Assembly (NCBI GenBank): GCA_038816475.1
Contig: JAWBAI010000004.1
Location: forward strand, 32,001-96,000
Length of the DNA: 64,000 bases
Direction: 5' to 3'
From: Desulfurococcaceae archaeon
Lineage (GTDB): Archaea > Thermoproteota > Thermoprotei_A > Sulfolobales > Desulfurococcaceae
The translations under genes were made by a program, and so were the position numbers. Positions 18,647 through 49,216 of this stretch are shown here, piece after piece. Below the pieces are notes generated by a model that saw nothing but the letters and a program-made list of their open reading frames with translations, did not search any database and had not been told where the DNA came from. Every line of letters starts with the position of its first letter. The first letter of the stretch is position 1.

Positions 18647-18676
18647 ATCTTAACTAGAGGAGAGAGTGGCGAAAGT
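18647..18676 (-). promoter_or_regulatory. ced operon promoter with ANTTTC DNA-damage-responsive element
   Basis: ACTTTC (18676-18671), 17 nt spacer, then TTAAGA TATA-like box; hexamer is 53-48 nt before the cedA1 GTG. Confidence 0.65.
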
Positions 18677-18695
18677 TACACAGCGGTGAACTGCT

Positions 18696-20624
18696 ATGAG
18701 AAAATTGTGGCCCGAAACGGTGAAAATCTACTGGGATCCTTGGCGCAACATACCTGTAGTAAAGCCAAAGCAGGAAGAACTAGACCTCTTCTATCAACTT
18801 AGATTAAGTGAACCGGGGGATGCAAGACCTGCTTTTCCTGGGGACCTAGAGAAAATAAAAGAAGCTATTGCATACGAGTTTGGAAGTACTAAGCTGTTCG
18901 ATCGCCTAGTGAAAGACCGCATAGTTCTGCTCAATAAGGTTCCACACTGGGATCTTATGTACGAAGTTGTAGTTTCAGGAAACGTCGTAGGGCAATTCTA
19001 CTACGATCCATACAAATGTAAGTGGAGATTCAGGTTAACTTACCAGGGCGCTTACACAGCTGTACAAAACAACCTTGTTGACACAATAAGAGGTGATCCC
19101 CCCTACTACGGCGGTAAAGTAGTAAGGGAGAAGTATAGCTCAAGTGCTAGAGAGCTCGTGCTGATCGATCATAAAGGTACTATAAGAGGAGTATGCGAAG
19201 TACTACCAACAGGCGAAGTGGTGATCGCAAAAACTTTTCATGATAAAACAGCGCCCGTGGAAACCAGTGATAAACCAGCATCAGTGCAAGATTTAGTAAA
19301 ATACAATGAAGAAGGTATCTTAACTCTAGAGGAGAAGTCAATCAACTACTTGAGAAGACTTTTCAACAGGTACTCTAGCCTTAGACCCGTAGTATCGTAT
19401 TCCGGTGGAAAAGATAGTCTCGTGGCACTAGATCTAGCTCATAGAGCATTCGGAGACCTTGACATTCTGTTCAATGATACCGGCTTGGAGATGCCTGAAA
19501 CCCTCTGCAATGTCGAATACGTGGCAAACTACTATGGTTATAAGTTATACGTAGCATCAGCCGGCGACATCTTCTGGAGAGCAGTAGATGTATTTGGTCC
19601 ACCCGGTAAGGATTACCGGTGGTGTTGTAAGGTAACTAAACTAGTACCTATTGCAAAGTTAACTAAGGCTGTATGGCTCAACGGAGGTCTCAACATAGTT
19701 GGTCAAAGAGCTTACGAGTCGCTAGATAGAGCATCAAGTCCTCTTGTCTGGAGGAACAAATGGATAAGGCACATGGTGAGTACAACGCCTATTCAGTACT
19801 GGAGTCAACTTTCAACGTGGATCTACATATTTAAGTACAATCTCCCGTATAACAAGCTCTATACATATGGATTCGACAGACTCGGATGTTTCATGTGCCC
19901 TTCATGCGCTTTAGCTGAATTTGAGGAAACCAAGAAGTTGTACCCAGATCTCTGGGGAAGATGGGAGCAAGTGCTGAGATCCTGGAAAAATAGAATGAAT
20001 ATGCCCGAGGAGTGGATAAAGCTTGGATTGTGGAGATGGCTTACGCCCGCTACTGCGAAGAAAAGGTTAACGCATCATGTTCCAGCATACTCAATGGACT
20101 GGAGAAAAGAGTACATGCAAAGACTCGAAAAGAGCAAGTCAAGCTTAACCCCCTTAGCTGTTGTGAAAGAAGGAGATAAGATCACAATACAGTTTAACAA
20201 GAACCTCCTACCAGAGGATCAAGTAGACGTATTTATCGCCAACATAGGAAGTTTAGGTTTCATCGTTGTTAGCAAAGAGCCACCTGTGTTCGAGAAGGGG
20301 AACGCTAGGTACATGATCAAGCACAACACCATTAATGTATCAAACTACAACGATGAACTGTTCGAAGACCTTGTCGACGTCCTGAAGGTCATTTATAGAA
20401 TGCATAACTGCGTTTACTGTGGTAGTTGTGTACTATGGACTAGAAAAGGTAGCGTTGCATTAACACCCAAGGGACCTATAGTAAAGAATGAATTGTCTGA
20501 AAGCGAGAAAAGAGCGTACATGGAAATATGCCCTATAAGCGATCAGCTCGTCGAGAAAGTAGTACTCTCTCTGCTACTTAATGATTACAGAGCGTTCAAG
20601 AGGAAGACGAGACGTAGGATTTAG
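18696..20624 (+). CDS. PAPS/APS reductase-family PP-loop protein with PUA-like N-terminus and C-terminal Fe-S motif
   Basis: SYSGGKDS, DTGLE, RWCC...K, GQRAYES..R, RLGCFMCP; C-terminal CVYCGSC...CP. Confidence 0.88.
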   Translation: MRKLWPETVKIYWDPWRNIPVVKPKQEELDLFYQLRLSEPGDARPAFPGDLEKIKEAIAYEFGSTKLFDRLVKDRIVLLNKVPHWDLMYEVVVSGNVVGQFYYDPYKCKWRFRLTYQGAYTAVQNNLVDTIRGDPPYYGGKVVREKYSSSARELVLIDHKGTIRGVCEVLPTGEVVIAKTFHDKTAPVETSDKPASVQDLVKYNEEGILTLEEKSINYLRRLFNRYSSLRPVVSYSGGKDSLVALDLAHRAFGDLDILFNDTGLEMPETLCNVEYVANYYGYKLYVASAGDIFWRAVDVFGPPGKDYRWCCKVTKLVPIAKLTKAVWLNGGLNIVGQRAYESLDRASSPLVWRNKWIRHMVSTTPIQYWSQLSTWIYIFKYNLPYNKLYTYGFDRLGCFMCPSCALAEFEETKKLYPDLWGRWEQVLRSWKNRMNMPEEWIKLGLWRWLTPATAKKRLTHHVPAYSMDWRKEYMQRLEKSKSSLTPLAVVKEGDKITIQFNKNLLPEDQVDVFIANIGSLGFIVVSKEPPVFEKGNARYMIKHNTINVSNYNDELFEDLVDVLKVIYRMHNCVYCGSCVLWTRKGSVALTPKGPIVKNELSESEKRAYMEICPISDQLVEKVVLSLLLNDYRAFKRKTRRRI

Positions 20625-20639
20625 CTGAAGAGCGTTATG

Positions 20640-23456
20640 CTACTCCTCTTCTTTGTCTGCAATATACTTCTTCACCATCAAGAACTTCTTCTCGCACTCA
20701 GCTACCTCGGATACAAGGTCAGCTCCTTGCTGAACTCTATTTATAATTCTGATCAATTCCTGCGTACCAACACCTCTACCAGCAAACGCCAATAACGCTT
20801 TTTCACCATGTCTGTAGAGAAGAACGGCTCTCTTAGCTAGATCCTCGTGTAGTCTACGCTCCTCAGGGTTGAGCTTTTTGCCTGATCTAAGCTTATTTAC
20901 AACCTCCATTTCTTTTGTTAAATCACCTTTAACCATAGTTAACGTAGCTAAACCGCATTTGGGACACGAGTAATTAGATAAACTCATGAAGTCCTTTACA
21001 GCTCCTTCTTTATGGAACCCGCAATTAATGCATAACAAGGTTATTCTTCTCTTGAGCAGTCTCTCGTAGTAGCTCGAAGTATCGAATAGCGTTACATCAA
21101 GTAATTTTGGTATTTCTATGTAATTTAATTGTACAATATGGTGTTTGTTGAGCGTATCGTAAACTCTGAACTCCACTTTGACAATATTCTTTTTTATCTT
21201 ATCCGCCAGCTCCTTGAAAGAATCTATATCGTAGTCTCTTGTTAAGACTTCTCTTAGAGCTTCTTTACCTATGATAGTGTTTACGTACGCTTCAATGAGT
21301 TTTCTACTGATCTTAGTTTCAGGGGTTATTGCTCCAAATCTTTGAGCCACCTGGTATATTCTCCAAAGACACGTAGTGCTCTCTACTGCGATTTTTTCTA
21401 TGAAACTCCTACTTGTATACTCATATAGCTTAGCAATTTTGTTGTAGATCAAGCTTTTTGCGAATTCCGTGGATACCGGATCTTCGAACTTGACTACTAT
21501 AGTGTACGGAGTAGCGTAAACATGGAATTTAACCTGTGGATATGTGGACTTAATAGTGTACTTTAGGAAGTCTTTAATCAGGTTATTGAGCCTAGATCCA
21601 CCGTACAAATTGATTAATACTAAACCAGGTCTCCGTACATAATCAACGTATACTACGTGGCTATCCCCAAGCTCAGCGGCTTGTTCACATGCGATGTTGC
21701 CATCTACAAGTTTTCTTAGGTGTTCGGGAGGGTTTCCGTTCTCCTTGATGTACTTCACGGCTTTTCCTACTTCATAAGCAACATGGTAATCCACAGGTAT
21801 GTTCTCACCTTCCCAGTGTGGTATAATGGCTACCTCGGGATCAGCTTTGGCTGGTTCAACGTACAGCTTACCTTCTGCATCGTCGTACCCTACAACTCTC
21901 CAGGGTTTACCAGCTAGTACCAGGAGGTCCCCTGGATTAAGGTAGAGTACTACGTATTCCTCGTCTAAGCTACCAACTCTTTCTGCTTTATCAACAGAGA
22001 CTACGTTTATTTCTCTACTAGACGGTATCATTGACACCTTGTAGAGGTATAACCTGGTTTTCCTCGTAGGATAAAGCAGGTTTTTCTCTAGTTTTACCAC
22101 CCGTGTATATGCTAAGTAGTTTATGGTCTCACTATAGTCTTCTTTTGTTAAGTTGGAGTAGAGAGGATACTTCACCAGTTCTTCGTAGAGCATGTCAACG
22201 TCAACTCCACCTGGATTTATGAAGGTGAAAAGTGCTATGGCGTACGCTAATACGTCGAGTGGAGTATTGGAAATAAGCTCATGCTCTAAGAAGCCCTCCT
22301 TGGCTTTCAGAGCTATAATACTAGATTCAAGTAGATGGAGCAGGTTAGATGTTGATACTATTGCGCCTCTACTCACTTCTTCTATTCTATGACGACTTCT
22401 CCCGATTCTCTGAACAAGCCTAACTACCTGTCGTGGAGACATGTACTGAACAACATAGTTTACATGCCCTATATCTATTCCAAGCTCTAAACTCGAAGTA
22501 GCAATTAAGGCGTTAAGCTTCCTATGCTTGAAGTCTAATTCTACTTTCTCTCTGTGAGCTTTAGAAAGGCTTCCGTGATGAACCTCCAAGCTAATATCTA
22601 AACCATGTTTTTCAGATAAGCTTTTCATCAGAGCTCCTAACCTTTCGGCTAAACTCCTGGTGTTTGTAAAAACTAGTACATGCTTCTCACTCTCAATAGC
22701 CTTGAACAAAGTTTCCAATCTGGCGGCGAGTTGAAGATCAGTAACGTCTTTGTTCAAAGCTTCGCAGAACTCACTACTACATACCGGCACTACTACCTTA
22801 ACATCCATGCTTCTAGTAGACGCATCCCTCAGCACTATAATGTTATTGTTGTACGGGTCGAGGAGTCTTTTCGCATATTCCTCGGCTTTGCTACTCAAAG
22901 TCGCTGTTAGGGCTATCTTTGTAAGCTTTTTACCTAAGTATTTCTCGAGAAAGTAAATATTGGTGAGAAGAAGTAATCCACGTTTACTCTCAAGAAGATC
23001 CCTAAACTCGTCTAACACAATGTACTCCAGATTTACTAGATGTTTTCTAGTTTCATCGTTTATCACTATGTAGTTAAAGGTCTCAGGTGTGGTTACAAGT
23101 ATGTGTGGAGGAGCTTGAGCTATTAGTTTTCTTACGTGTTGTGGCGTATCTCCGTGTCTTATAGCTACCTGTAGACCAAAGCACTTGCTTATTCTTTCAA
23201 GTCTACTCGCTATATCCCTATTCAGAGCTCTCAACGGTGTAATGTACAGGACAGCTGTGGGCTTGAGCTTTCTCAGAGATACCTTAAGCATTACAGGAAA
23301 CATAGCAGCCTCCGTCTTACCGCTACCTGTTGGTGCAACGATTATGAACGAGCCTGTGCTTTTGTAAATCTCGCGCAGGCTTCTTCTCTGAATTTCCGTG
23401 AGGTTTTTGTACCCGAGTTCTTTTAGGCAGACAGCTATTTTGTTAATATCCTCCAT
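20640..23456 (-). CDS. lhr: Lhr-family SF2 helicase with C-terminal Zn finger
   Basis: APTGSGKTEAA, YITPLRALNRD, RHGDT, TTPE, HHGSLS, SSLELGIDIG, QRIGRS, P.WEGE; CINC...CPKC. Confidence 0.93.
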   Translation of the reverse strand: MEDINKIAVCLKELGYKNLTEIQRRSLREIYKSTGSFIIVAPTGSGKTEAAMFPVMLKVSLRKLKPTAVLYITPLRALNRDIASRLERISKCFGLQVAIRHGDTPQHVRKLIAQAPPHILVTTPETFNYIVINDETRKHLVNLEYIVLDEFRDLLESKRGLLLLTNIYFLEKYLGKKLTKIALTATLSSKAEEYAKRLLDPYNNNIIVLRDASTRSMDVKVVVPVCSSEFCEALNKDVTDLQLAARLETLFKAIESEKHVLVFTNTRSLAERLGALMKSLSEKHGLDISLEVHHGSLSKAHREKVELDFKHRKLNALIATSSLELGIDIGHVNYVVQYMSPRQVVRLVQRIGRSRHRIEEVSRGAIVSTSNLLHLLESSIIALKAKEGFLEHELISNTPLDVLAYAIALFTFINPGGVDVDMLYEELVKYPLYSNLTKEDYSETINYLAYTRVVKLEKNLLYPTRKTRLYLYKVSMIPSSREINVVSVDKAERVGSLDEEYVVLYLNPGDLLVLAGKPWRVVGYDDAEGKLYVEPAKADPEVAIIPHWEGENIPVDYHVAYEVGKAVKYIKENGNPPEHLRKLVDGNIACEQAAELGDSHVVYVDYVRRPGLVLINLYGGSRLNNLIKDFLKYTIKSTYPQVKFHVYATPYTIVVKFEDPVSTEFAKSLIYNKIAKLYEYTSRSFIEKIAVESTTCLWRIYQVAQRFGAITPETKISRKLIEAYVNTIIGKEALREVLTRDYDIDSFKELADKIKKNIVKVEFRVYDTLNKHHIVQLNYIEIPKLLDVTLFDTSSYYERLLKRRITLLCINCGFHKEGAVKDFMSLSNYSCPKCGLATLTMVKGDLTKEMEVVNKLRSGKKLNPEERRLHEDLAKRAVLLYRHGEKALLAFAGRGVGTQELIRIINRVQQGADLVSEVAECEKKFLMVKKYIADKEEE

Positions 23457-23546
23457 ACACGTATGCCAAGATTAAAATCTCGCTAGGAATAGATATTATA
23501 CACTGGGTTATATCATCAAGTACAATCGGAGCACAAGGCACACCAT

Positions 23547-25454
23547 ATGAGCTTAAATAATGAAGTTAGAAGGCACTTATTCGCCGTGTATGTGTTGTGG
23601 TTTTTCAACTGTATACTGTACTTTCTGTCTTCTGGTCCACTGAAACCCACACTGACGCTTCGAGGTATAAGCTTATTCGACCTGCTAAGCTACTCGAGGG
23701 TTCTAAACCAAGCAGTAGAGTTCGTAGGATATCTCATCGTATCCTTGATTCATCTTATCGCATCTCTTGCAATAACCAGGAATATAGTATTAGCATTGAT
23801 GAACCGTGCGCTTTTAATCGTTCAGCTCTCTCTGCTCGGTTTCGACCGTATAAGCTACGGTGTTTTAATTCGCGAGTTTGCAATACTGGTATTTGCTTTG
23901 TTTATACTGAGGGTAATATCACATGGTTCTATACCAAAACTTAGTACTATTGACCTGTTCATTGGTTTGAAGAATTTAGTAAGTAGTGTAGTTCGAGATA
24001 AAGAGAGTAGAGTGAAGATTGATGCGGTTGTTTACATGCTTTCTCTACACAGTTTAGCACTATCTCTTCTCATACTATGGACGTTCTCATATACAAGCGT
24101 ACAGGATTTATATGCGATGGGAGGTGTACTGATGATCTTATTTGCGATAATACCTTTACTTCAAATAGGTCTTTTAACTGTGATCTCAAGAAGCATGGAG
24201 CAATCGTCCTTAATTCTTCTAATGAGCGCTATTTCCGGTACAGGACTTCTAGGTACAATACCAATGCTGATGTCCATCGGTTACGTAGGTTCATCACGCT
24301 TACAATCAGTACACGCGAAATTCACTAAGTTGAAATCCACTGGCTTATACATGGGTACAGTGTTAGCAGAGCTTACAAGTAAAAAAACGCTGGAGAAGGA
24401 GGAGTGGTATTGGAGCAGTAAATCGTTTCCTCTCTACCTGGATTTCGATAAGCTTAACACACCGCACGTCATAATCATAGGGTCGTCTGGAACCGGTAAA
24501 ACAACCCTGGCCAAACACATAGTTCAGGAAGCAAAGAGAAAGTACAATTACAACGTAATTATAATAGACTTACACGGCGAATACCATGATTTACAAGATG
24601 AGCTAGGGCTTAAGATAATAGATGCCTCAAGCTGTGGCGTAAATCCACTTGCACTAGGAAATGCTTCACCAAAAGATAGAGCGATGCAGGTAGCGCACAT
24701 AATATCTACGATATTTGATCTTGGACCACTTCAAAGGAGAATGATTGAAGAGGTGATAATGGAAGCTTACAACCTACGTGGTATAAATCAAAGAGATCCA
24801 ACCACCTGGAGCAGAGATCCGCCCACGCTCCAAGAGCTCGTAGAGGTTTGCAAGAGACTTATCAAAGAGAATTTCGAGTACAGCCGTATCATACCCTACT
24901 TGGAAATGCTAAGTGAAAATCTGAGTACGGAGTGTTGGCTAAGCGTAGACAGCGTTCTCGAACAGGACAGCCTTATAGATCTAAGCAGAGTAGCTAGCGA
25001 TTTCGCGAAAACGATCTTCATAGATACGTTAATGTATCTTCTACTGAACAGAATGTACACTATGGGTAAGAGAAAAATACAGTTGTTATTAGACGAGGCA
25101 AGAAGTTTGATGCCTAGAGCTGTAACACGAGAGATCATCAGTAGGCTATTTGTGGAGAGTAGGAAATTTGGATTTTCATTAATCGTAATCTCGCAGGAGA
25201 TAGGTAAAATACCTCGAGATTTCGTTAACAATGCCGGGGCACGCGTGTTCTTTTTACTAAATGATCCGAAAAGCGTTGAAGAAGCATCAAAAATACTCAG
25301 TGGAACAAGTCTCAGGGATAAAGTGTCTATAGTAGCTGAGGCGCTTAGAACTCTTAGGCAACATACATACTTAATTCACATTACAGGCTTAAACAAGGTG
25401 TATATTGTCAGCTCGCCTATTGAATCAGAAGAGCATAAAAATAAGTATGGCTAA
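23547..25454 (+). CDS. Membrane-anchored HerA/VirD4-like ATPase (CedD-like candidate)
   Basis: Hydrophobic multi-TM N-terminus (~250 aa); PHVIIIGSSGTGKTT, IIDLHGEY, LLLDEA, ESRKFG..ISQ. Confidence 0.8.
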   Translation: MSLNNEVRRHLFAVYVLWFFNCILYFLSSGPLKPTLTLRGISLFDLLSYSRVLNQAVEFVGYLIVSLIHLIASLAITRNIVLALMNRALLIVQLSLLGFDRISYGVLIREFAILVFALFILRVISHGSIPKLSTIDLFIGLKNLVSSVVRDKESRVKIDAVVYMLSLHSLALSLLILWTFSYTSVQDLYAMGGVLMILFAIIPLLQIGLLTVISRSMEQSSLILLMSAISGTGLLGTIPMLMSIGYVGSSRLQSVHAKFTKLKSTGLYMGTVLAELTSKKTLEKEEWYWSSKSFPLYLDFDKLNTPHVIIIGSSGTGKTTLAKHIVQEAKRKYNYNVIIIDLHGEYHDLQDELGLKIIDASSCGVNPLALGNASPKDRAMQVAHIISTIFDLGPLQRRMIEEVIMEAYNLRGINQRDPTTWSRDPPTLQELVEVCKRLIKENFEYSRIIPYLEMLSENLSTECWLSVDSVLEQDSLIDLSRVASDFAKTIFIDTLMYLLLNRMYTMGKRKIQLLLDEARSLMPRAVTREIISRLFVESRKFGFSLIVISQEIGKIPRDFVNNAGARVFFLLNDPKSVEEASKILSGTSLRDKVSIVAEALRTLRQHTYLIHITGLNKVYIVSSPIESEEHKNKYG

Positions 25455-25519
25455 TTGTTGAACCATTAGTAGATACTGTTTATTAAGAAATTCCAGACTA
25501 TGTGTTTAAGGTGACTTCG

Positions 25520-25816
25520 ATGCTTTTCTACGAGGAAGAGTATAGGAGCGAGGATGAGGAGGCTCGTGGAGAAAAGGAAGAAACGGTCATTGAAGAAGAG
25601 GAAGGAGAACTAGTTGTTGAGCAGTTGAAATTACTAGTAAAAGTGTCCAGAACATGGCAACAAGTACTCCAGGGTCGAGAATCCGTAGATGCTTTAAAAT
25701 CTCTATATAAACCGGCGACGAAGCCTGTTCGCGTGTCAACTACGGCTGAAAGAAAAGCTAAAACTACCAGGAAGAAGCCCCAGTCTAAATCCCGAAGAAG
25801 GTCTAAGCCAAGTTAG
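25520..25816 (+). CDS. rpo13: RNA polymerase subunit Rpo13
   Basis: Acidic N-terminus, core L..EQLKLLVK...WQQVLQG..SVD.LK, basic K/R tail; ATG 25520 behind GGTGA. Confidence 0.75.
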   Translation: MLFYEEEYRSEDEEARGEKEETVIEEEEGELVVEQLKLLVKVSRTWQQVLQGRESVDALKSLYKPATKPVRVSTTAERKAKTTRKKPQSKSRRRSKPS

Positions 25817-26193
25817 AACTCCTTGTACTCGAATAGCACTTCGGAATAGCCAATCTCGTTAAGTGCTTTTACTAAAAGCTCCCTCGGCATTTTTTTATCA
25901 AATACGAACTCGACTATTTTATTATCTCCGTTTTTTATCAATTTAATCTTCTGAACTACAGTTCTTCCACGGATCGATTCAGCGATATCCTTAGGAACAA
26001 CTAAATAGCTTTCATATCTTCTTTTTGCTAAACCGTAGTACTCGTCGAAGTTTTCAATTATTCTCTTCGCTTCTTCGAGGTCTTTTGTAATACCGTGTAT
26101 TGATATAATGGACTCAACGAGCTTTACTGCGAGATGTTGTTCAAGTTTTACATGAAAGCACTTTGCTAGGTCTACCTCTACTGTAATTTTCAT
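25813..26193 (-). CDS. Conserved hypothetical protein
   Basis: 126 aa ORF filling the gap, convergent on rpo13; no motif recognised. Confidence 0.7.
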   Translation of the reverse strand: MKITVEVDLAKCFHVKLEQHLAVKLVESIISIHGITKDLEEAKRIIENFDEYYGLAKRRYESYLVVPKDIAESIRGRTVVQKIKLIKNGDNKIVEFVFDKKMPRELLVKALNEIGYSEVLFEYKEF

Positions 26194-26252
26194 CTTAAGA
26201 CCCTTCCAACTTATATATCAGAAGTTTTGTAAGCCTATATTAAGGGGATACG

Positions 26253-27005
26253 GTGTTTAAGGTTCAGTACCCTAATGCAAGCAAGTTAAAGCAGGTAGTT
26301 CAAGCGCTGGCTAAGATCAGCGACGAACTTCAACTACAGGTAACTCTTGAGGCATTTAACTTAATGGCTTTATCTCCAGATAAAACCATGATGGCTGTAT
26401 TAACTCTACCTAACCTTGTATTTGAAGAGTACAGCGTTGAAGAAGAAACAACGATATTAGTGCCTGCAATAGAGCTTAAAAGAGTTATTAGGAGAACTAC
26501 AAGAAACGACATAATGCAGATATCCGTGAACAAAGAGACGAACGAGCTAATTATAGTTCTCCGCGATAGAAAGAGTGGGCTTGAGAGAGAACTCGCCGTG
26601 CCAATAATCCCTAGACCTCCTGAGCCTGTTCCTGAACTAGAGCTAGAGCTCTCCGTAACATTTGCAATGCTGAGTCAAGATCTAAAGAACATTGTGGGAG
26701 ACTTAAAACTCGTAGGTGAAGAAGCGACCTTCATCTACGAACCTGGGAAAATAGTCATTAGGTCAACGGAGCAGCGCAAAGAGTACACGTGTGAACTTCG
26801 AGAAGGAAACCCGCTCACAATTCTATCCTCGGCTGTGGAAAGAGCGCAATCTACTTATGGTACTGACATGCTAGTGGCGATCGCAAAAGTAGCTAGCGCA
26901 TCGAAGCAGGTGATAGTATCGTTCGATACTGGTAAACCCATGAAGGTAGAATACGAGCTTGCAGGCGGAGGCAGACTCGTGTACTGGATTGTACCACGCG
27001 TGTAG
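26253..27005 (+). CDS. pcn: DNA polymerase sliding clamp (PCNA paralogue)
   Basis: 250 aa; ALSPDKTMMAVL, FEEY, P.PELE linker, SFD..KPM.VEY....GRLVYWIVPRV. Confidence 0.93.
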   Translation: MFKVQYPNASKLKQVVQALAKISDELQLQVTLEAFNLMALSPDKTMMAVLTLPNLVFEEYSVEEETTILVPAIELKRVIRRTTRNDIMQISVNKETNELIIVLRDRKSGLERELAVPIIPRPPEPVPELELELSVTFAMLSQDLKNIVGDLKLVGEEATFIYEPGKIVIRSTEQRKEYTCELREGNPLTILSSAVERAQSTYGTDMLVAIAKVASASKQVIVSFDTGKPMKVEYELAGGGRLVYWIVPRV

Positions 27006-27007
27006 TA

Positions 27008-27307
27008 CTACTTGGTTTTCGAGTGAAGACTTTTTCCTTCAAGTAGAGATGTTAACTCCTCCATTAACTTTTCTCTCTCTTCTAAGCTCATACCTTTAAT
27101 GCGCTGAGTAGGGGATTTAAGTGGTGATTTGAAGATCCATGCAGGGTTTTTGCAAGTTGTCATCCAGTATGGACATGCAACGCAACAGTGCGGATCAACG
27201 GCGAGTTCAGGGAATAGTGAGCAGGTCTTTGTGGGGTTGTGCAATCCACACAAGTCGCATCTATCCCAGTATATCGTCAAACTATTCACCACTACACAAT
27301 AAACCAA
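27008..27307 (-). CDS. Small Cys-rich hypothetical protein
   Basis: WDRCDLCG...C...HCCVACP....C; probable start TTG 27280 behind GGTGA. Confidence 0.75.
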   Translation of the reverse strand: MVYCVVVNSLTIYWDRCDLCGLHNPTKTCSLFPELAVDPHCCVACPYWMTTCKNPAWIFKSPLKSPTQRIKGMSLEEREKLMEELTSLLEGKSLHSKTK

Positions 27308-27422
27308 TAGTAGGCTTTTAAGAGCTTTTAGTTGTTAACGTATATGATAAACGTATGGACAGTATATACCCGTATATTACCTCTGACATCATAGTGTAAT
27401 ATGCAGGTACTAGTTAGTTCAG

Positions 27423-39010: not shown

Positions 39011-39011
39011 A

Positions 39012-40316: not shown

Positions 40317-40325
40317 CCTTTCACC

Positions 40326-41927: not shown

Positions 41928-42015
41928 ATAAACACCATACTGAATAAACTATCTTCACGGTTAGGTTATAAGCAACTAGAATACTATCGGTTAACTCTAC
42001 CTGGTACACCTTATA

Positions 42016-42043
42016 ACTTTTACCCGTGAACCCGCTTCAAAAA
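42016..42043 (+). promoter_or_regulatory. Possible damage-responsive promoter of the pilus operon
   Basis: TAACTTTT (ACTTTT at 42016-21, one mismatch to ANTTTC) 54-49 nt before the pilin ATG; weak TATA TTCAAAAA. Confidence 0.4.
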
Positions 42044-42069
42044 CACCCATTCTTTATTGGGATTCAACC

Positions 42070-42462
42070 ATGAAGGGGGTTTCGGGAATAGTTGCAACGG
42101 GTATCTTACTAGCGTTAACAATAGCTGGCGGCGTTCTCCTCTACTCGTACATTACCAGGTACTTAACAGTGTTCACTAACTCGGCGGATATTGTAATTAC
42201 GAACGCGTACTACATTAAATCACTGAACAAACTCTACGTTACAGTAAGGAACGTAGGTTTAACTCCAACAACTGTGACAGGAGTTGAAGTCATACTAGTA
42301 AACAGAAGCATTTCAGCTAGTAATCAAACATATGATATCCCAGCAGGTGGAGAACGAACCATAGAAGTAAACGTCGATCTCACAGAGACACCTCTCTACG
42401 TTGTTGTACGCTACGACAGAGACAGGCGAACGGATCCATACACGGTAAGGGTATTTGGCTGA
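42070..42462 (+). CDS. Archaeal type IV pilin (class III signal peptide)
   Basis: MKG|VSGIVATGILLALTIAGG PibD-type cleavage site; beta domain with VTVRNVG; N-glycosylation sequons NRS and NQT. Confidence 0.9.
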   Translation: MKGVSGIVATGILLALTIAGGVLLYSYITRYLTVFTNSADIVITNAYYIKSLNKLYVTVRNVGLTPTTVTGVEVILVNRSISASNQTYDIPAGGERTIEVNVDLTETPLYVVVRYDRDRRTDPYTVRVFG

Positions 42463-42480
42463 TAAACACAGGTGTAATCA

Positions 42481-44007
42481 ATGAAGATCTTCAAAAGATT
42501 TTTTTCTAGATCTTTTCTTTCTTCTTTTAAATTTAGCTTATCCATTCCTTATGCAAGCAAGAACATTGATCCCACAACCTCGAACATTTTGAATATGCTA
42601 CTCGAAAACCACCTCAAAGGTTACAATATTGAGAACGTAAGCCTGGACAGCATTCTATATACCTACAGTTTGCATAACGTTGTTGAAATCTCTGTTGGAG
42701 AACTCGGTAATGAGGTTTTCTACGTTGTTAAGGAGCCGACGTACGATAACGAGGTTTTAGCTCAGGTTACACGAGAACTCTCTAGTAGAGTTTTCTCCGA
42801 CGAACAGGTTATTTCTAGCATAAAATCTATGCTCGAGAAGAAAGAGCTCAAACCTACTGACTACATATACTTCAAAGTAACAAGCGGTCTTGGTCCTCTC
42901 ACACCTCTTGTTCTAGACCCTCACGTCGAGGATATTCATTTGAGTAAGTCTTCTGGCAGAATTTACGTTGTTCACAATTCTTTTTCTTGGATTGGCTGGT
43001 TAAAGACTAACATAATAGTTAAACCAGAGCTAGTAGATCAGCTGGTTCTCGCTCTATCTAGAAGAGCTGGAAAACACGTATCTCTTGTTCAACCACTCGT
43101 CGAGGGATCACTAGAGGGTGTTCTGAGAGCTAGTTTGGTTTACGGTGGAAGCATAGCGCAACTTGGTAGTAGCATAGTACTAAGGAAGAAGAGTGGGGCA
43201 GTTCACACCATCACAAAACTGATTAACGAGGGAACAATATCATCCGCGGTTGCAGCATACCTTTGGCTTGTGATAGAGAACAAGGGTTGGATCGTAATCG
43301 CAGGCCACGTCGGCTCTGGGAAAACCACCTTGCTTCAAGCACTTCTGAGCCTTATACCAGGGAACAAAAAGGTCATCACAATAGAGGATTCCCCTGAAGT
43401 CTACGTTCCAAGCGAATTATGGGACTCTTTCGTTGAAAACTACGAGGTTTTTTCGAGATTACCTCAGGTGGATGCTTTCGCGCTTCTCAAATTTGCCCTT
43501 CGAAGAAGAGCAGACTATATAGTTATTGGCGAAGTTAGAGGAGCTGAAGCGAGGTTATTGGTTCAAGCTTCGAGATTAGGTCATGGTGTACTGAATACCA
43601 TACATGCTGATGGTGCACAGTCTGTTCTTGAAAGACTCATGGCATCTCCAATATCAATTCCAAAAAATCTTCTTGGTAACATATGGACGATTGTGCTAAC
43701 AGAACTTGTTGGTAAAACAAGAAAAGTGGCAAGTATTACAGAAGTAAGCAACGACGTAGAGTTGGTCGAAATATGCAGTTCCTTGGTACCATGTAGCTTA
43801 GAGAATATTGCTCAGAGGTCTGTTAGGCTCGCTAAGATCTACAATAGTGAAGAACTGTATCAGGAACTTGCTCGTAGAGCGATCTTCCTAGAAAAACTTG
43901 TCTCCGAGGGTGTTTTTGCACCAGAAGCACTAGCACGTAGGCTCTTCGAGTTTTATGCGGAAAAACATCTGGAGGTCGAAGAGCTTGTTGCTAAGAGTAC
44001 TCGGTAA
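42481..44007 (+). CDS. Type IV pilus assembly ATPase (VirB11/FlaI/UpsE family)
   Basis: GLGPLTPLVLDPHVEDI, Walker A GHVGSGKTT, Asp box TIEDSPE, IVIGEVRG.E, GHG..NTIHA. Confidence 0.93.
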   Translation: MKIFKRFFSRSFLSSFKFSLSIPYASKNIDPTTSNILNMLLENHLKGYNIENVSLDSILYTYSLHNVVEISVGELGNEVFYVVKEPTYDNEVLAQVTRELSSRVFSDEQVISSIKSMLEKKELKPTDYIYFKVTSGLGPLTPLVLDPHVEDIHLSKSSGRIYVVHNSFSWIGWLKTNIIVKPELVDQLVLALSRRAGKHVSLVQPLVEGSLEGVLRASLVYGGSIAQLGSSIVLRKKSGAVHTITKLINEGTISSAVAAYLWLVIENKGWIVIAGHVGSGKTTLLQALLSLIPGNKKVITIEDSPEVYVPSELWDSFVENYEVFSRLPQVDAFALLKFALRRRADYIVIGEVRGAEARLLVQASRLGHGVLNTIHADGAQSVLERLMASPISIPKNLLGNIWTIVLTELVGKTRKVASITEVSNDVELVEICSSLVPCSLENIAQRSVRLAKIYNSEELYQELARRAIFLEKLVSEGVFAPEALARRLFEFYAEKHLEVEELVAKSTR

Positions 44008-45259
44008 GAGGAGATTTCTACATAAATGCTACGATGATATGTTCCTCGACTTTCTCGTGCAACTAGCAAGCTTTGAATCTAGTGGTTTAAAGATCTATCA
44101 CTTGTTCGAAAGCATTAGAAGAGGTGATATCGAGCTTGGTGAGTGCTACAGCGCTCTCTCGAACCAGTATACTGTACTAGAGAGTTCTCTAGGTGCACCT
44201 CACCTGGCTTTGAGAAAGATTGCTGAATCTGTACCTTTCTTAGAGCTCTCTAAATTTCTGAGAGATTACAGTACCGTGCTGGTTACTAGTGGTAATACGA
44301 AGTACTTCGTTGAATCTATACTTAAGCAGGAGTTTGCTAGGTTTAGGGCAAAGGTTAATGAGCATCAGAGAGCGCTCGATACGTTGTACGAAGCGTATCT
44401 AGTGGGGGTCCTAGTGCTAATGTTCCTCATGGTGCTACCCATATGGGGTTTGCTCCCGCTTCTTGGACTACTCGTAATCTACGCGCTGGGCGTTACTGGG
44501 TACTTCTTCGCGTATAGAATATGCGTAAAGCTCCATTACACCCTTCCCGGCTACGTAGTATTCAGCGACATTCTCTTCTCAACGCTAGCAGTTGTTCTAG
44601 CCTTGTCTTTCGAGGCGATGCTCCTACTACCTGCACTATTACTTGTTCTACACGTGACTACGAGAAAACACGCTGCTGTGAACAATATTCTCGAGCAGGA
44701 ATCGTTCCGCGTAATCTACGATACTTACTCGCAGGTGTTAATGGGTAGACCAGTGAGTACAGCATTGTTGGAGTCCCTAGGTTCCTCCAACTCAGCTCCG
44801 TACAGGTTACTCTGGTTTAGTTTAATGCTAGGCGTTAACCCAAAGAAAGTTTTAAAGATTATTAAGCTTCCAAAACTAGCTTACAAGATACTTCTCTTCT
44901 CGCTTGCTACTATGCTTTACAGCTCAGCTGAAGGTAAGCACCTTGTTCACGCTGTTGACTACTTGGACGAAATCGCATCAGTGAGAAAACAGGTACGCGA
45001 GAAGATAAAGCAGTATGTTCTGTACTCCTTTGTAGTAATTGTTCTTGTGGTAGCAGCCTACATTATGCTATTGAGAATACCACTAGCATCACCCTTAGAC
45101 AAGCACGCGTTTTCAGCTTACAGTAGTATAGGTTTTCTAATGGTAATGCAGCCAGCGGTCCTAATCAGAGACGGAGGATTCACTTCTTCGCGAAGCGCGA
45201 TAGCAGTAGTATTCGCAGCGTTTGCTACGTATTTGGTGATGATGAACTTAACTATTTAA
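43955..45259 (+). CDS. Type IV pilus membrane platform protein (TadC/FlaJ/UpsF-like)
   Basis: Multi-TM; two cytoplasmic helical repeats (L.SFESSG; P..ELSKFL..Y.....SG); follows the ATPase. Confidence 0.78.
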   Translation: MRKNIWRSKSLLLRVLGKRRFLHKCYDDMFLDFLVQLASFESSGLKIYHLFESIRRGDIELGECYSALSNQYTVLESSLGAPHLALRKIAESVPFLELSKFLRDYSTVLVTSGNTKYFVESILKQEFARFRAKVNEHQRALDTLYEAYLVGVLVLMFLMVLPIWGLLPLLGLLVIYALGVTGYFFAYRICVKLHYTLPGYVVFSDILFSTLAVVLALSFEAMLLLPALLLVLHVTTRKHAAVNNILEQESFRVIYDTYSQVLMGRPVSTALLESLGSSNSAPYRLLWFSLMLGVNPKKVLKIIKLPKLAYKILLFSLATMLYSSAEGKHLVHAVDYLDEIASVRKQVREKIKQYVLYSFVVIVLVVAAYIMLLRIPLASPLDKHAFSAYSSIGFLMVMQPAVLIRDGGFTSSRSAIAVVFAAFATYLVMMNLTI

Positions 45260-46241
45260 GCTCCTCAACTAGAATCTTTGCAATTGTTCTCGCGGCATTA
45301 GGGTAAATCCTAGTGGGTTTGTGAGCAAGCTCCAGAGCTCTCTTTAGCTCCTCTACGTCCGCTCTCTCGATGAAAACTGCTTCTAGCTTCTCAGCGTAGA
45401 TCTTTACATCATTTTTTGGTGCACCAAGAACAACCCTGGGATTCCACACCACTATGACTGGTTTCCCGTAGGCCAAGCTAGCGGTAGCAGCGGTAACTCC
45501 TTGCTGGGTAACAACGATGCTTGCATCCGCGATCCACCTATGTATATCACTAGTATACCTGAAAACTTTCCACGAAGGGTTTCTCCTGAGGTAGGGCTCT
45601 GGATCCACATCTCCTGTTTGCATAACAACATTGTCTAGTTTTAGTCTCTCAATGGAATCGAACAACTCCTTATACCCAATTGTTCCAGTCGTTACAAGCA
45701 CATAGCCTTCATCCCTGGGTTCGTAAACGGGAGGCTCGTAAACTGGCCCAACCACAATCCCCTTTGGAAACATTCTCAGCTGCTCTTCCCAGTGCAGAAA
45801 CACCTTTGCTCCAAAAAACTCGAGGAACTTAACAGCTCTTGAAGGCTTAGAAAAGTGCTCTATCGCTTCAATAGTGTACACTCTTGCTCTCCTGAGAATC
45901 ATGGCTATTAGAGACGGTGGAATGGAGAAATTGGATCCACCAGCGAATACAGCTTTAATGTGCTCATTCAATAGTAACTGAGTAGATTGGAAAAACGCCT
46001 TAATCCATCTTCCAAGTCCTTTTACTAAGGGCTCTCCGGGTCTTCTAGGTAGCACCTGGTAGTAAACTCTACCCAAGTTCTTGAACTTCTCAGCTAGGAA
46101 AGAGTACTCCTCGGCTACAAGGAAAATACTGTTCCTAAACCCGGCTTTAGCAAGCTCTATCGCTACAGCATAAACGTAGCCCGAGTGACCTCCGTAGCCT
46201 GCAACTAGCAGTATACTGTTTTCCTTCAAGGCGGCATTCAT
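45252..46241 (-). CDS. agl24: Alg14/Alg13-fusion (MurG-like) glycosyltransferase, Agl24-like
   Basis: N-terminal AGYGGH, GSNF..P, IEAIE, C-terminal VLVTTGT, QTG, VVTQQG; Alg14-Alg13 domain order. Confidence 0.75.
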   Translation of the reverse strand: MNAALKENSILLVAGYGGHSGYVYAVAIELAKAGFRNSIFLVAEEYSFLAEKFKNLGRVYYQVLPRRPGEPLVKGLGRWIKAFFQSTQLLLNEHIKAVFAGGSNFSIPPSLIAMILRRARVYTIEAIEHFSKPSRAVKFLEFFGAKVFLHWEEQLRMFPKGIVVGPVYEPPVYEPRDEGYVLVTTGTIGYKELFDSIERLKLDNVVMQTGDVDPEPYLRRNPSWKVFRYTSDIHRWIADASIVVTQQGVTAATASLAYGKPVIVVWNPRVVLGAPKNDVKIYAEKLEAVFIERADVEELKRALELAHKPTRIYPNAARTIAKILVEELK

Positions 46242-46318
46242 CTCGACTAAGCGTTCACTATGAATATCAGTGGAATACAGCTCTTATAACAATCGTTCTT
46301 AACGAAAATTACCGTATG

Positions 46319-46393
46319 CGGGCCCGCCGGGATTTGAACCCGGGTCCTCCGGCTCCGCAGGCCGGCGCCCTCTCCAGGCTAGGCCACGGGCCC
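46319..46393 (-). tRNA. tRNA-Arg(GCG)
   Basis: GGGCCCGTGGCCTAGCCTGGAGAGGGCG CCGGC CTGCGGA GCCGG AGGACCCGGGTTCAAATCCCGGCGGGCCCG; no intron; CCA not encoded. Confidence 0.96.
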
Positions 46394-46419
46394 CTAGTGG
46401 TTTTAGGTATTCTTGGTTT

Positions 46420-47103
46420 TTAGTACTTTCGTTTAAGCATCTTTGAGTAGGAGTCTGCTTCCTGAAGCGGTATTGGTAGTTTTGCTTCTTTGGTAAGCAG
46501 GTTTTTAACTATGTTAACAGCGTCCTCCAGATTCACTTTGTAGCCTATGCTTACGTAGAGTTCAGTGCTTCCGTGTTTCAGTACTTCTCCAACTATTAAG
46601 CCGTGCGCTCTAATAAGTCTTCTCCCGCAGCTCTCTACTATTTCACCGTACAGCTTCTTTTTAGCTACACCTATGCTGGGCTTCTCGAGAACTAGCCCAA
46701 TGTGAGTTGCTATACCGAAGGCTCTGGGATGCGCCAAGCCATGTCCATCTACGAGTATAACATCGGGTTTCACCGTGAGCTTTGAGTACGCTCTCATGTA
46801 CCCTGGAACTTCTCTGAACGCTAGTAACCCCGGTATGTATGGAACACGAGCTTCAACTATACTGAACGCCTTCTCCACGATGTTTCGTGAACTCGTATCG
46901 TAGATTACTATTGCAGCGTACTGTTTGCTGTCCTTATAGGCCGAGTCAAAGCCAGCTATAAACCTTATCTTGCTCAGATCAAGGTGCGTGCCTTCGCGAA
47001 TACTTAGGAGAGCTTTCTCGGAGAGAACTTTCTGTAGCATCATAGCTCTCTCAACGCTGAAACTCACAGTTAAACACCGGTGCAGTTGTTTCGCATCAAT
47101 CAT
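46420..47103 (-). CDS. nfi: Endonuclease V
   Basis: AGFDSAY, PYIPGLLAFRE, VDGHGLAHPRAFGIATH, GVAK, YVSIG. Confidence 0.96.
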   Translation of the reverse strand: MIDAKQLHRCLTVSFSVERAMMLQKVLSEKALLSIREGTHLDLSKIRFIAGFDSAYKDSKQYAAIVIYDTSSRNIVEKAFSIVEARVPYIPGLLAFREVPGYMRAYSKLTVKPDVILVDGHGLAHPRAFGIATHIGLVLEKPSIGVAKKKLYGEIVESCGRRLIRAHGLIVGEVLKHGSTELYVSIGYKVNLEDAVNIVKNLLTKEAKLPIPLQEADSYSKMLKRKY

Positions 47104-47168
47104 GCTGTTTTTAATGGAAAGTATTATTAAGTATAATTCATGTGCTTTAGGTATTTGTTAACTCTGGT

Positions 47169-47732
47169 GTGAACTTGAAGTACAAGAGATCAAAGCTCGC
47201 TGATATATTTAACGTGCTTCACAGGTGGAAGATAAACGGAGTTGTAATAGGTGACACATCCGTTCAGCTGCACTTGAACTACCCAGAACTCGACGGAGAC
47301 ATTGATGTTTTTACACTAGATTTTAGCCCCCTATCGGAGAGGGAGAAACTAGAAGAAATTGCAGCGGAGCAAGGATGGGAGTTGACAACATCAGAAATAG
47401 GTTTACCGGCGCTAGTGGTCCCTTTGGAGGAAGGCTACGTGCTTATTGAGTTCTACGAGAACTACATGGACATAGATATACCGATGGAGCTTCTCGAGGA
47501 CTCAGTCGAGTACAGAATAGACTCAACGAGAATAAAGTCCATTAGACCGGAGTACTATCTCGTTTTAAAAGCAAGGCAAGGTACAGACCTTGACAAGCTC
47601 GAGAAATACCTAGCAGAGCTTAAACGCAGAGGCTTCAACCTGAAGCTAGTTGAATACGCAGTATCACTGTACCCACCTGAGGAGCAAGAACTTATATACG
47701 AGAGGTTGAGAAGTGTTAAGCTAGAAGTTTAG
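47169..47732 (+). CDS. Nucleotidyltransferase-fold protein (DUF2204-like)
   Basis: VVIGDTSV...DGDIDVF, YENY.D, PEYYLVLKAR. Confidence 0.75.
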   Translation: MNLKYKRSKLADIFNVLHRWKINGVVIGDTSVQLHLNYPELDGDIDVFTLDFSPLSEREKLEEIAAEQGWELTTSEIGLPALVVPLEEGYVLIEFYENYMDIDIPMELLEDSVEYRIDSTRIKSIRPEYYLVLKARQGTDLDKLEKYLAELKRRGFNLKLVEYAVSLYPPEEQELIYERLRSVKLEV

Positions 47733-47777
47733 CTTTAAAATCCCTATTACGGGTATATGAGGTAGTAGGTGCTTACT

Positions 47778-47954
47778 ATGCCAATAAACGACCCCGAGTT
47801 GCTGAAAATAGTGCATCTGCGTGTTTTGAACAAGTACGTGTGCAGAAAGTGTGGTGCATTAAACCCGCCGGGAGCAGAGAAGTGCAGAAGATGCAAGTCC
47901 AAGGGTACACTGAGGCCAAAGAAGCTGATGAAGGCAGGTCCTAAATCTAAGTAA
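47778..47954 (+). CDS. rpl40e: 50S ribosomal protein eL40
   Basis: [30 protein letters not shown]. Confidence 0.95.
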
Positions 47955-48028
47955 TTACAATGTTAACAGTTGTTAGTGGAATACCACGTGGTGTAAGGTT
48001 GTGAGCTTTTAGCTATACCGATGAACAG

Positions 48029-49129
48029 TTGGAAAAGCTAAGAGTCGACAAGCAAAAGCTTAGAGAAATAATAAGAGAGCTTTCTACTTGGAGAGCTCAT
48101 GCAACAATACTACTAAGTTTGTACATTCCACCGGGAAGACCCATAAGCGATGTTCTCGCTCTCCTAAGACAGGAGATCTCCGTAGCCGAGAACATCAAAC
48201 TCAAACGTACAAGGAACGCTGTTGAGTGGGCGCTAAACATAGCCTATGATAGGTTAAGCAAGATACCCAAAGCACCAGATAAGGGATTAGTACTGTTTGC
48301 AGGTATGAATCCCGACACAGGTGAGTCAACTGTAGTGATGCTTATACCTCCTGAGCCCGTACCCGTATTCTTCTACAGAACGGACAAGGTATTTCACGTA
48401 GAGTTCCTGGAGGAAATGGTCTCGGAGAGCAACATAATTGGTATTCTCCTGATCGAGAGAGATGCTGCAACTATAGGTCTTCTCAAGGGTAATAGATTGG
48501 AGGTTGTTGATGAACTGGAAGGATATGTTCCCGGTAAACACCACAAAGGTGGTCAAAGCCAGAGGAGATTTGACAGGATCATAGAGCAAATGGTAGAAGA
48601 ATTCTACAAGGATGTTGGCGAAAGAGCAAACCAGGTGTTTCTACCATTACTGGAGCAGGGTAAACTGAAAGCAATAATTATCGGTGGACCCGCGTATGCA
48701 AAGTACGATTTCCTACAGGGCAACTACTTGGACTATAGGTTAAAGCAAATAGTACTACCAGAGCTCATAGACGTAGCCTACCAAGGTGAAGCTGGACTAA
48801 GAGAGCTAATCATGAAAGCGGGAGATCTACTAAAAGACCAAGAGTACGCTGAATCTTTGAAGCACCTGGAAGAGTTCAAGTACCACCTGGCAAAGGATGA
48901 TGGACTTATTGTTTACGGCGAAGAGGAGGTTAAACTAGCATTACAGCAGGGATTATTAAAAGTTTTACTTGTAAGCGATTCACGAAACGATGTTACATCA
49001 TGGCTTGAAGAAGCTTCATCAAAGAACGTGAAGGTTGTTGTAATAAGCAAGGATCTTCCAGAGGGTGAGTGGTTTTCCAGAACATTCGGTGGAATAGCTG
49101 GTATTTTAAGGTTTCGAACGTACGAGTAG
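48029..49129 (+). CDS. prf1: Peptide chain release factor aRF1
   Basis: SLYIPPGR, NIKL, FYRTDK.FH, PGKHHKGGQSQRRF, FGGIAGILRF. Confidence 0.98.
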   Translation: MEKLRVDKQKLREIIRELSTWRAHATILLSLYIPPGRPISDVLALLRQEISVAENIKLKRTRNAVEWALNIAYDRLSKIPKAPDKGLVLFAGMNPDTGESTVVMLIPPEPVPVFFYRTDKVFHVEFLEEMVSESNIIGILLIERDAATIGLLKGNRLEVVDELEGYVPGKHHKGGQSQRRFDRIIEQMVEEFYKDVGERANQVFLPLLEQGKLKAIIIGGPAYAKYDFLQGNYLDYRLKQIVLPELIDVAYQGEAGLRELIMKAGDLLKDQEYAESLKHLEEFKYHLAKDDGLIVYGEEEVKLALQQGLLKVLLVSDSRNDVTSWLEEASSKNVKVVVISKDLPEGEWFSRTFGGIAGILRFRTYE

Positions 49130-49163
49130 CAGAGCTCGAGATCTCACGGATTCAAAAAGGAAT

Positions 49164-49192
49164 AGTTTCATCAAGCTCTCCTTGACTTAACC
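49164..49192 (+). promoter_or_regulatory. Promoter with ANTTTC element, near-identical to the ced promoter
   Basis: AGTTTC (49164-69), atcaagCTCTCCTtgac, TTAA; hexamer is 53-48 nt before ATG 49217. Confidence 0.65.
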
Positions 49193-49216
49193 TATACCAT
49201 CTTTAAACGGGGTTCC

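Follow-up and report, generated by a model that had tools for sequence, protein, structure and literature searches.

A conserved promoter element of the Sulfolobus DNA-damage-response type ahead of the ced operon and of a pilin-like gene in a Desulfurococcaceae archaeon

The window analysed here, meaning the whole stretch of 64,000 nucleotides, covers positions 32001-96000 of contig C4 in a genome of 1.15 Mb (1,153,660 bases, 18 contigs, 92% complete). The host is a hot-spring archaeon of the Desulfurococcaceae lineage and thus lies outside the classical Sulfolobus group. The window carries a ced operon for DNA import and, at a distance from it, the gene of a 388-residue pilin-like protein. 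An earlier note on this DNA had claimed that both are read from a shared promoter element of the kind known from the damage response of Sulfolobus, which in the following we will call the DNA-damage-response element (DDRE). The features concerned are these:

15162..16814, minus strand: cedB, HerA/VirB4-like ATPase (Pfam DUF87/HerA, 46 bits)
16789..16962, minus strand: cedA2-like small membrane open reading frame (ORF) of 57 residues, assigned by position only, between cedA and cedB
16959..18353, minus strand: cedA, polytopic membrane protein, named from operon context and the literature
18357..18623, minus strand: cedA1, starting with GTG 18623, of the VirB2-like Ced pilin family; CedA1-like ORFs that immediately precede cedA in relatives share 48-82% identity with it
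18650..18676, minus strand: DDRE-type promoter of the ced operon, with ACTTTC 18676-18671, six bases, CTCTCCT 18664-18658, four bases and TATA-like TTAA 18653-18650
49164..49190, plus strand: DDRE-type promoter of the 388-residue gene, with AGTTTC 49164-49169, six bases, CTCTCCT 49176-49182, four bases and TTAA 49187-49190
49217..50383, plus strand: 388-residue pilin-like protein, with class-III-signal-like N-terminus, pilin module at residues 1-152 and C-terminal beta-sandwich at residues 167-388

Exact matching on both strands returned the two 27-nucleotide sites with the layout and at the positions that the earlier note gave. The hexamer starts 53 nucleotides (nt) ahead of the start codon at both, counted from GTG 18623 in the case of cedA1 and from ATG 49217 in the case of the 388-residue gene. 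The choice of GTG 18623, likewise proposed there, agrees with the CedA1 orthologues in 30 loci, which start M-D-L-V-E-F at the aligned position. In the suggested check on genome-wide frequency, the composite A-N-TTTC-N6-CTCTCCT-N4-TTAA occurred twice on both strands of the genome, exactly at these sites, and two occurrences were also obtained when TTAA was left out. The single parts are common, with 2155 occurrences of ANTTTC and 304 of CTCTCCT. As the exact pattern was drawn from the two sites themselves, the independent test lies in its conservation and in a matrix trained on other genomes.

For conservation, relatives of the 388-residue protein were sought in 16 genomes of the same genus, 8 of other genera of the family and 16 of other families. 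They were present in 16/16 and 4/8 genomes of the first two groups, and none was found with this query in the 16 genomes of other families. The relatives are only 22-38% identical as proteins, and A-N-TTT-C/T stands 51-58 nt upstream in each of the 18 loci in which the N-terminus is covered; six bases further on comes CTCTCCT or a sequence close to it. Upstream of cedA1 the same hexamer, then a C-rich heptamer and a TATA-like box, was found at 40-75 nt in 24 of the 30 loci; the six loci in which the hexamer is missing (L043, L045-L049) all come from other families. CedA itself was matched in 37 of the 41 genomes searched for cedA, the window's own genome included. Thus the motif is kept ahead of both cedA1 and the 388-residue gene in relatives of the same genus and the same family, and what the ced and 388-residue promoters have in common is a genuine cis-element, conserved and of the Sulfolobus DDRE type.

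The matrix has 23 positions and was built from 33 ced and 388-residue promoter sites of other genomes, excluding this genome along with two strains nearly identical to it and three loci that were duplicates. On both strands of the genome it gave five matches of at least 20 bits:

contig C6, 60302: 24.3 bits, the highest in the genome; zinc-ribbon leader downstream
contig C3, 79622: 22.2 bits; 214-residue TFB3-like ORF 55 nt downstream
window, promoter of the 388-residue gene: 21.0 bits
window, promoter of cedA1: 20.6 bits
contig C13, 1008: 20.1 bits; 248-residue RadA-fold ORF 53 nt downstream

The window sites therefore rank 3rd (388-residue gene) and 4th (ced) of about 2.3 million positions, and four of the five matches sit 53-55 nt ahead of a start codon. 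Three of the five, namely those at the TFB3-like gene, the RadA-fold gene and the zinc-ribbon leader, belong to families outside the training of the matrix. Twenty first-order Markov genomes of the same size served as the null and contained on average 0.4 matches at or above 20 bits, and never more than 2. With the threshold at 16 bits the comparison was 10 observed to 5.7 simulated and at 14 bits 15 to 16, so that only the top handful stands above noise. Matches below about 18 bits, including one at an ABC-permease gene with 18.5 bits, were rejected as members, being as frequent in the simulated genomes. With conservation and an external matrix behind it, the claim of an element shared by ced and the 388-residue gene is well supported.

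The relation to the element of Sulfolobus was then considered. Passages of Sun et al. 2018 (PMC6061795) describe a 20-bp consensus in S. islandicus, consisting of AAT, the hexamer, six variable bases and CTC-W-S, at 23-55 nt ahead of the ATG. They report that mutation of the hexamer in the upsA, upsE, tfb3 and cedA1 promoters abolishes induction by 4-nitroquinoline 1-oxide (NQO), and that Orc1-2 footprints the element. Both window sites carry CTCTC at the offset of the published CTC-W-S; CTCTCCT is therefore the 3' half of the known consensus, which it extends. The suggestion that CTCTCCT is an additional, lineage-specific element has to be given up on this account, the S. islandicus consensus having CTC at the same offset and the Sulfolobaceae upsA promoters a C-rich heptamer there.

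These upsA promoters served as positive control. Sulfolobaceae here stands for the 13 of 151 genomes above the UpsA equivalog cut-off, all of which fall in one family. Six of their upsA loci, of 3.4 kb, were scanned on both strands, and each contained a match of 16.3-21.5 bits located 41-55 nt ahead of upsA, which in five loci is the sole match of at least 12 bits. The layout is that of the window sites (hexamer, six bases, C-rich heptamer, 3-4 bases, TATA), and one Sulfolobaceae cedA1 promoter (L050) shows it as well. The Orc1-2/TFB3 DNA-damage-response regulon of Sulfolobales is reportedly also the subject of Feng et al. 2018 and Schult et al. 2018. A literature search, to which most subscription journals and supplementary tables were beyond reach, found no description of the element outside Sulfolobales. 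As an aside, the second match in the sixth upsA locus (L149) has its hexamer at 2597 (plus strand, 16.6 bits), 43 nt before a 176-residue ORF downstream of upsA/upsB, and may be a further damage-response promoter within the ups neighbourhood.

Among the members outside the training families, the TFB3-like gene is the closest to what is known. Its product of 214 residues matches Pfam Zn_Ribbon_TF with 32.6 bits (cut-off 29) and has no TFIIB cyclin repeat, which is the layout of TFB3. The element is found with at least 14 bits in 23 of the 30 loci of its relatives, several other families included. The best match of its profile in each of five Sulfolobaceae genomes is a zinc-ribbon ORF of 166-199 residues (E 1e-15 to 1e-12), clearly distinct from the TFBs of about 300 residues, and four of these five ORFs have ANTTTC 72-85 nt upstream, inside the published tfb3 range. 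The earlier note had itself named an element ahead of such a gene as support for its claim, and the 22.2 bits found there provide it.

Neither Pfam nor NCBIfam assigned the 248-residue protein to a family. Its profile reaches RadA with E 0.003, and its model (predicted local distance difference test, pLDDT, 75.6) is matched by Foldseek to RAD51/RadA cores with probability 1.00 and a template-modelling score (TM) of about 0.6. The Walker A motif G-x-x-G-x-G-K-T is missing at the aligned position, which makes the protein a RadA/Rad51 paralogue devoid of the ATP loop. The element ahead of its gene is kept in 15 of 16 loci. In the case of the C6 site, the interval at about 60111-60302 of that contig lies beside a tRNA gene, and the element stands 191 nt before an 85-residue zinc-ribbon ORF (L051:1855-2303, minus strand). 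This distance is kept at -184 to -196, with at least 14 bits in 12 of the 15 same-genus loci. Searches of the interval for conserved ORFs, a consensus structure and Rfam families found the neighbouring tRNA and nothing else; the interval may be a long leader or an RNA of an unknown kind.

Two Orc1/Cdc6 genes are present in the genome. The first, with 415 bits to 2qby_A and 412 to 2v1u, belongs to the Orc1-1 type. The other, on contig C1 from 113842 onward, has its best Protein Data Bank matches in 1fnn (212 bits) and 1w5s (164 bits), and a passage of a 2025 paper names 1W5S as an Orc1-2 homologue; as judged from these matches, the genome has an Orc1-2-type paralogue. The expectation that matches would be confined to ced, pilin, tfb3 and orc1-2 promoters held for ced, the 388-residue gene and the TFB3-like gene. 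It did not hold for the Orc1/Cdc6 promoters, both of which were checked and found without the element, and the RadA-fold gene and the zinc-ribbon leader come in addition.

Compared to the Orc1-2/TFB3 regulon of Sulfolobales, the element here has in common the hexamer, the spacer of six bases, the C-rich continuation, the placement before TATA and the distance of about 40-55 nt from the start. The tfb3 and cedA1 genes are members in both, and an Orc1-2-type paralogue is present. The differences consist of the Desulfurococcaceae host, of the Orc1-2-type gene whose own promoter is without the element (in Sulfolobus, Orc1-2 binds its own promoter), and of the members found here, i.e. the 388-residue family, the RadA-fold protein lacking Walker A and the zinc-ribbon leader. 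Overall, we consider it highly probable that the cis-element is homologous to the DDRE of Sulfolobales and defines the regulon listed above.

Regarding the ced operon, the full Ced cluster is present in the window, that is cedA1-cedA-cedA2 together with the HerA/VirB4-like ATPase CedB. The best NCBIfam model for cedB is CedB, with 70.7 bits against a cut-off of 700, and CedD comes next; no Pfam family was matched by cedA1, cedA or the cedA2-like ORF. The order cedA1-cedA-cedA2-cedB and the good conservation of CedA1 are as in the Ced DNA-import system of Beltran et al. 2023 (PMC9905601). Compared to known Ced systems the gene content is usual, and what is new is a conserved DDRE ahead of ced outside Sulfolobaceae. 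Ced was already known in Desulfurococcales. The import system is said to go back to van Wolferen et al. 2016.

Several observations were made on and around ced. CedA looks as if it had an N-terminal CedA1-like module, its residues 10-72 being similar to CedA1 with E about 1e-7 in many genomes. Divergent from ced lies the gene of a 642-residue protein with a PAPS-reductase domain (143 bits; 18696-20624, plus strand). Its ATG is just 20 nt from the hexamer of the ced DDRE, so the promoters of both must overlap; reverse frames in several relatives suggest the same gene there. Two genes away from ced, a 938-residue ORF (20640-23456, minus strand) contains helicase-like motifs as read by eye. A CedD-like ATPase is encoded on contig C10, 26130-27550 (minus strand in L142:1498-2915). 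It has 363 residues and covers no more of the CedD model than positions 181-526 (250 bits, cut-off 600); it is preceded by a separate overlapping ORF of 109 residues, and the transmembrane N-terminal part was not seen. In Sulfolobus, cedD is UV-induced according to passages of the 2025 UpsC papers (PMC11823120/PMC11868833).

The 388-residue protein is, judging from its sequence and model, laid out as an archaeal type IV pilin, with a short charged N-terminus, a K/R-G motif, a hydrophobic helix and a beta-rich domain. It begins M-K-G-V-E-S-I-V-G-A-Y-L before the hydrophobic stretch, parallel to M-K-G-V-S-G-I-V-A in a 130-residue pilin encoded upstream of it. The AlphaFold model, built on an alignment of 13 sequences, has a pLDDT of 78.7 and a predicted TM of 0.60 and consists of a helix, spanning residues 2-50, and beta domains after it. 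In a structure search other than Foldseek, residues 1-152 aligned to the Pyrobaculum calidifontis archaeal type IV pilin 8fk7_A (Z 8.1, root-mean-square deviation 3.3 Å, 124/136 residues). Residues 167-388 aligned to CBM4/CBM22 modules, a hyaluronan-binding module, an adhesin domain and a surface glycan-binding protein at Z 8.0-8.4; since Z 7-8 is a common background best score of this aligner, the C-terminal likeness is only a lead. Foldseek with the same model gave TM of just 0.1-0.2, to beta-sandwich proteins, and neither Pfam nor NCBIfam, pilin models included, assigned the protein to a family. The description of the product as a pilin is therefore borne out as far as a pilin-like N-terminal module, seen in sequence and model.

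This family is small. A profile search found 81 representatives among 1.84 billion, and the eight of these that were examined have only the first 140-165 residues in common. A pattern search with the N-terminal peptide yielded 12 close relatives from Desulfurococcaceae metagenome-assembled genomes (one labelled Thermosphaera sp.) and no distant ones, and an ESM Atlas search returned only the protein's own cluster. There are 7 N-x-S/T sequons in the protein. The genome also encodes a PibD-like prepilin peptidase (Peptidase_A24, 36.3 bits), in the promoter of which no convincing element was found on checking.

The closest precedent in kind is UpsC. Passages of PMC11823120 and PMC11868833 describe it as a 49-kDa pilin that has a class III signal, a large C-terminal domain carrying glycans and 9 predicted sequons; its gene lies away from the ups operon, is UV-induced within the TFB3-dependent set and is needed for aggregation. 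Both proteins are encoded away from the pilus operon, which in relatives lies 12 kb or 53 kb from the 388-residue gene or on another contig. Both carry many sequons (9 in UpsC, 7 here), and a damage-response-type promoter precedes both genes. They differ in that an aggregation role is known for UpsC and in that sequence homology could not be detected with the family profile (the UpsC sequence was not compared directly). Built from 13 members, this profile had no significant match in five Sulfolobaceae genomes with UpsA, the best matches (E 0.11 and 0.31) covering only the UpsA N-terminus. For this reason we call the 388-residue protein an analogue of UpsC and not a member of its family; on these likenesses it would be an analogue and possibly a very diverged homologue. 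The statement that Ups is regarded as specific to Sulfolobales reflects the literature, as passages of recent papers confine Ups, UpsC and several other TFB3-dependent genes to that group. Separately, a 455-residue frame in a genome of another family (G027, contig C17, 25690-25983) matches the UpsA model with its first 96 residues (45.7 bits) and may be another large UpsC-type pilin outside Sulfolobaceae.

The pilin that was described as an orphan is indeed unlinked, but it is not devoid of machinery. A pilin-ATPase-platform operon at 42070-45259 (plus strand), 4.7 kb upstream of the 388-residue gene, had been overlooked, and ahead of it stands a conserved variant of the motif:

41983..42016, plus strand: variant DDRE-like block with ACTATC 41983-41988, CTCTACC 41995-42001 and TATA-like TTATAA 42011-42016
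42070..42462, plus strand: 130-residue type IV pilin; best NCBIfam model UpsA, 30.6 bits against a cut-off of 130
42481..44007, plus strand: ATPase for type IV pilus assembly; no other T2SSE match in the genome exceeds the Pfam cut-off
43955..45259, plus strand: platform (T2SSF/TadC-like) membrane protein, Pfam T2SSF 22.6 bits, below the cut-off of 25.2; also assigned by its position after the ATPase

The variant block starts 87 nt before the pilin ATG, with six bases between ACTATC and CTCTACC and about nine from there to TTATAA. It is kept in all 11 same-genus promoters that were aligned, and in two of them the hexamer reads ACTTTC. An assignment of the 130-residue pilin as UpsA orthologue was rejected, because the UpsA model gives 40-70 bits to pilins throughout the order, which thus do as well or better.

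To place the ATPase, a quick maximum-likelihood tree of 36 sequences was calculated, with an arbitrary root, no bootstraps and labels taken from upsA adjacency and NCBIfam. The clade of the window ATPase, which includes the best matches from two other families, groups with UpsE plus BasE and one further Sulfolobaceae clade (Shimodaira-Hasegawa-like approximate likelihood ratio test 97), apart from the archaellum and Aap-like clades; the order inside this group is not settled by the tree. The window ATPase is not nested in UpsE, and its best Sulfolobaceae match is UpsE in 1 of 5 genomes. As far as this sequence comparison goes, the window machinery appears related to the Ups/bindosome (UpsE/BasE) branch, and we do not claim UpsE orthology. 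Relatives carry about three T2SSE-type ATPases; with the genome 92% complete, further ones may simply be unassembled.

The operon shares with the Ups system (subsystem 4I, PMC13705601) the combination of pilin, ATPase and platform protein and an adjoining glycosyltransferase and putative endonuclease. It differs in having the pilin first in order, a single pilin, no UpsX and a variant promoter element. The neighbours in question, encoded on the minus strand directly after the operon (45252-47103), are a glycosyltransferase with a GT28 C-terminal domain and an endonuclease V-like ORF identified by eye, and a tRNA-Arg(GCG) gene lies between them at 46318-46393. According to the same type-4-filament paper, genes for a glycosyltransferase, an endonuclease and a helicase adjoin ups in Sulfolobales.

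The analysis establishes the element, how it is conserved, its specificity within the genome, that it is the same as the upsA element of Sulfolobaceae, and which domains the products contain. That Orc1-2 binds it, that damage induces the genes, that the 388-residue protein enters pili and that cells aggregate is what we infer. The element, of the kind bound by Orc1-2 in Sulfolobales, consists of the A-N-TTT-C hexamer, six bases, the C-rich heptamer and TATA, and transcription would begin at the start codon or close to it. In the proposed mechanism, once the DNA is damaged, the Orc1-2-type paralogue encoded on contig C1 (113842 onward) would bind the hexamer, and TFB3 would help to bring RNA polymerase to promoters that have a C-rich tract in place of a purine-rich B recognition element (BRE). 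The C-rich box at the BRE position may keep basal TFB-dependent initiation low and thereby create the dependence on Orc1-2 and TFB3. The cells would then make Ced pili for DNA import. Once the PibD-like peptidase had processed the putative pilus-borne adhesin of 388 residues and the ATPase and platform proteins had assembled it, it would bring cells of the same kind together.

As to the signal, the content of the regulon and the experiments in Sulfolobus suggest that DNA damage is probably the inducer here too. Likewise, we think it likely that the DDRE-type regulon of this genome (TFB3-like gene, ced, 388-residue gene, RadA-fold gene and zinc-ribbon leader, with the variant at the pilus operon) is under Orc1-2-type damage control. 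Several findings weigh against this interpretation. A methods passage on A. pernix Ced pili, which were prepared from cultures, contains no UV step; in this group, expression of ced may therefore need no added damage, and this weakens the claim of a damage signal. Besides the Orc1/Cdc6 promoters, the promoter of the CedD-like operon was checked and no DDRE was found. The variant block at the pilus operon scores 13.7 bits, which is within noise, mostly reads ACTATC and lies about 9 nt further from its TATA box. The failure of the 388-residue profile to find a Sulfolobaceae relative and the background-level Z values belong here as well. Metatranscriptome contigs of a relative (92-99% identical) show a depth of 18-32 over the pilin gene and 7-11 over the 388-residue gene; this is compatible with transcription in nature, with DNA carry-over possible and neither start, strand nor induction readable. 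Three raw-read hot-spring metatranscriptomes contained 0, 0 and 2 matching reads. One could accept the element and the regulon as listed and assign them to a different factor or to a different signal (growth phase, starvation, surface contact or heat); what is shared with Sulfolobus would then be an ancestral promoter architecture only. The A. pernix pili fit such an explanation, as does the Orc1-2-type gene whose own promoter, unlike in Sulfolobus, is without the element. We nevertheless hold it to be unlikely, in view of a membership that matches the Sulfolobus damage regulon (tfb3, ced, pilins) and adds a recombinase-fold protein, and of a matrix that also recognises the experimentally proven upsA element. 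That the two window sites are alike by mere chance, as two AT-poor promoter stretches, might be argued from a pattern that was defined after the fact out of parts occurring hundreds to thousands of times in the genome. It is refuted to the point of being negligible by the same distance of the element in many orthologous promoters, by 5 matches of at least 20 bits where 0.4 are expected, and by the independent families that carry it.

The function of the 388-residue protein is the more delicate part. That it is a pilus-borne adhesin for cell-cell contact is, in our estimation, an even call. The protein might instead belong to the regulon and be neither pilus subunit nor adhesin, either as a membrane-anchored surface protein acting with the Ced apparatus (for example as a receptor for DNA or the cell wall) or with an unrelated envelope function. 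The missing family assignment, the lack of linkage to the pilus operon in relatives, the mere variant of the motif at that operon and structural Z values near background would all agree with this. An N-terminus (M-K-G-V-E-S-I-V-G and the hydrophobic helix) that closely parallels that of the 130-residue pilin, a model that matches a whole archaeal pilin, helix and beta domain alike, and the precedent of UpsC as an unlinked, large, damage-induced minor pilin make it rather improbable, if somewhat less so than a different signal. Of the interpretation given in the earlier note as a whole, the conserved DDRE-type element, the TFB3-like member and the pilin-like module remain, while the lineage-specific role of CTCTCCT and the orc1 promoters drop out.

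In its widest form, the interpretation is that Desulfurococcaceae have a counterpart of Ups plus Ced, a system for cell aggregation and DNA exchange that damage can induce. This system would combine UpsE/BasE-related machinery with a fast-evolving, lectin-like tip or minor pilin unrelated in sequence to UpsC, and an Orc1-2/TFB3 circuit older than the Sulfolobaceae split; we put this forward tentatively, as a possibility short of even. The kind of system is already known, and what is new is its conserved presence in Desulfurococcaceae. Also new are a pilin-like member with the layout of UpsC but not its sequence, the variant element on an UpsE/BasE-related pilus operon, and the RadA-fold and zinc-ribbon leader members.

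A passage of Sun et al. 2018 (PMC6061795) leaves as a question whether Orc1-2 homologues have a damage role outside Sulfolobales, and the conserved element gives a testable gene list for it in another family. To this list two candidate players are added, a RadA-fold protein devoid of the ATP loop and a zinc-ribbon gene preceded by a long leader. The predicted pilus-borne adhesin could explain how cell contact is made in archaea that carry Ced and are without Ups. If the interpretation is true, species-specific, pilus-mediated DNA exchange would be ancestral to the whole branch and not an invention of Sulfolobales.

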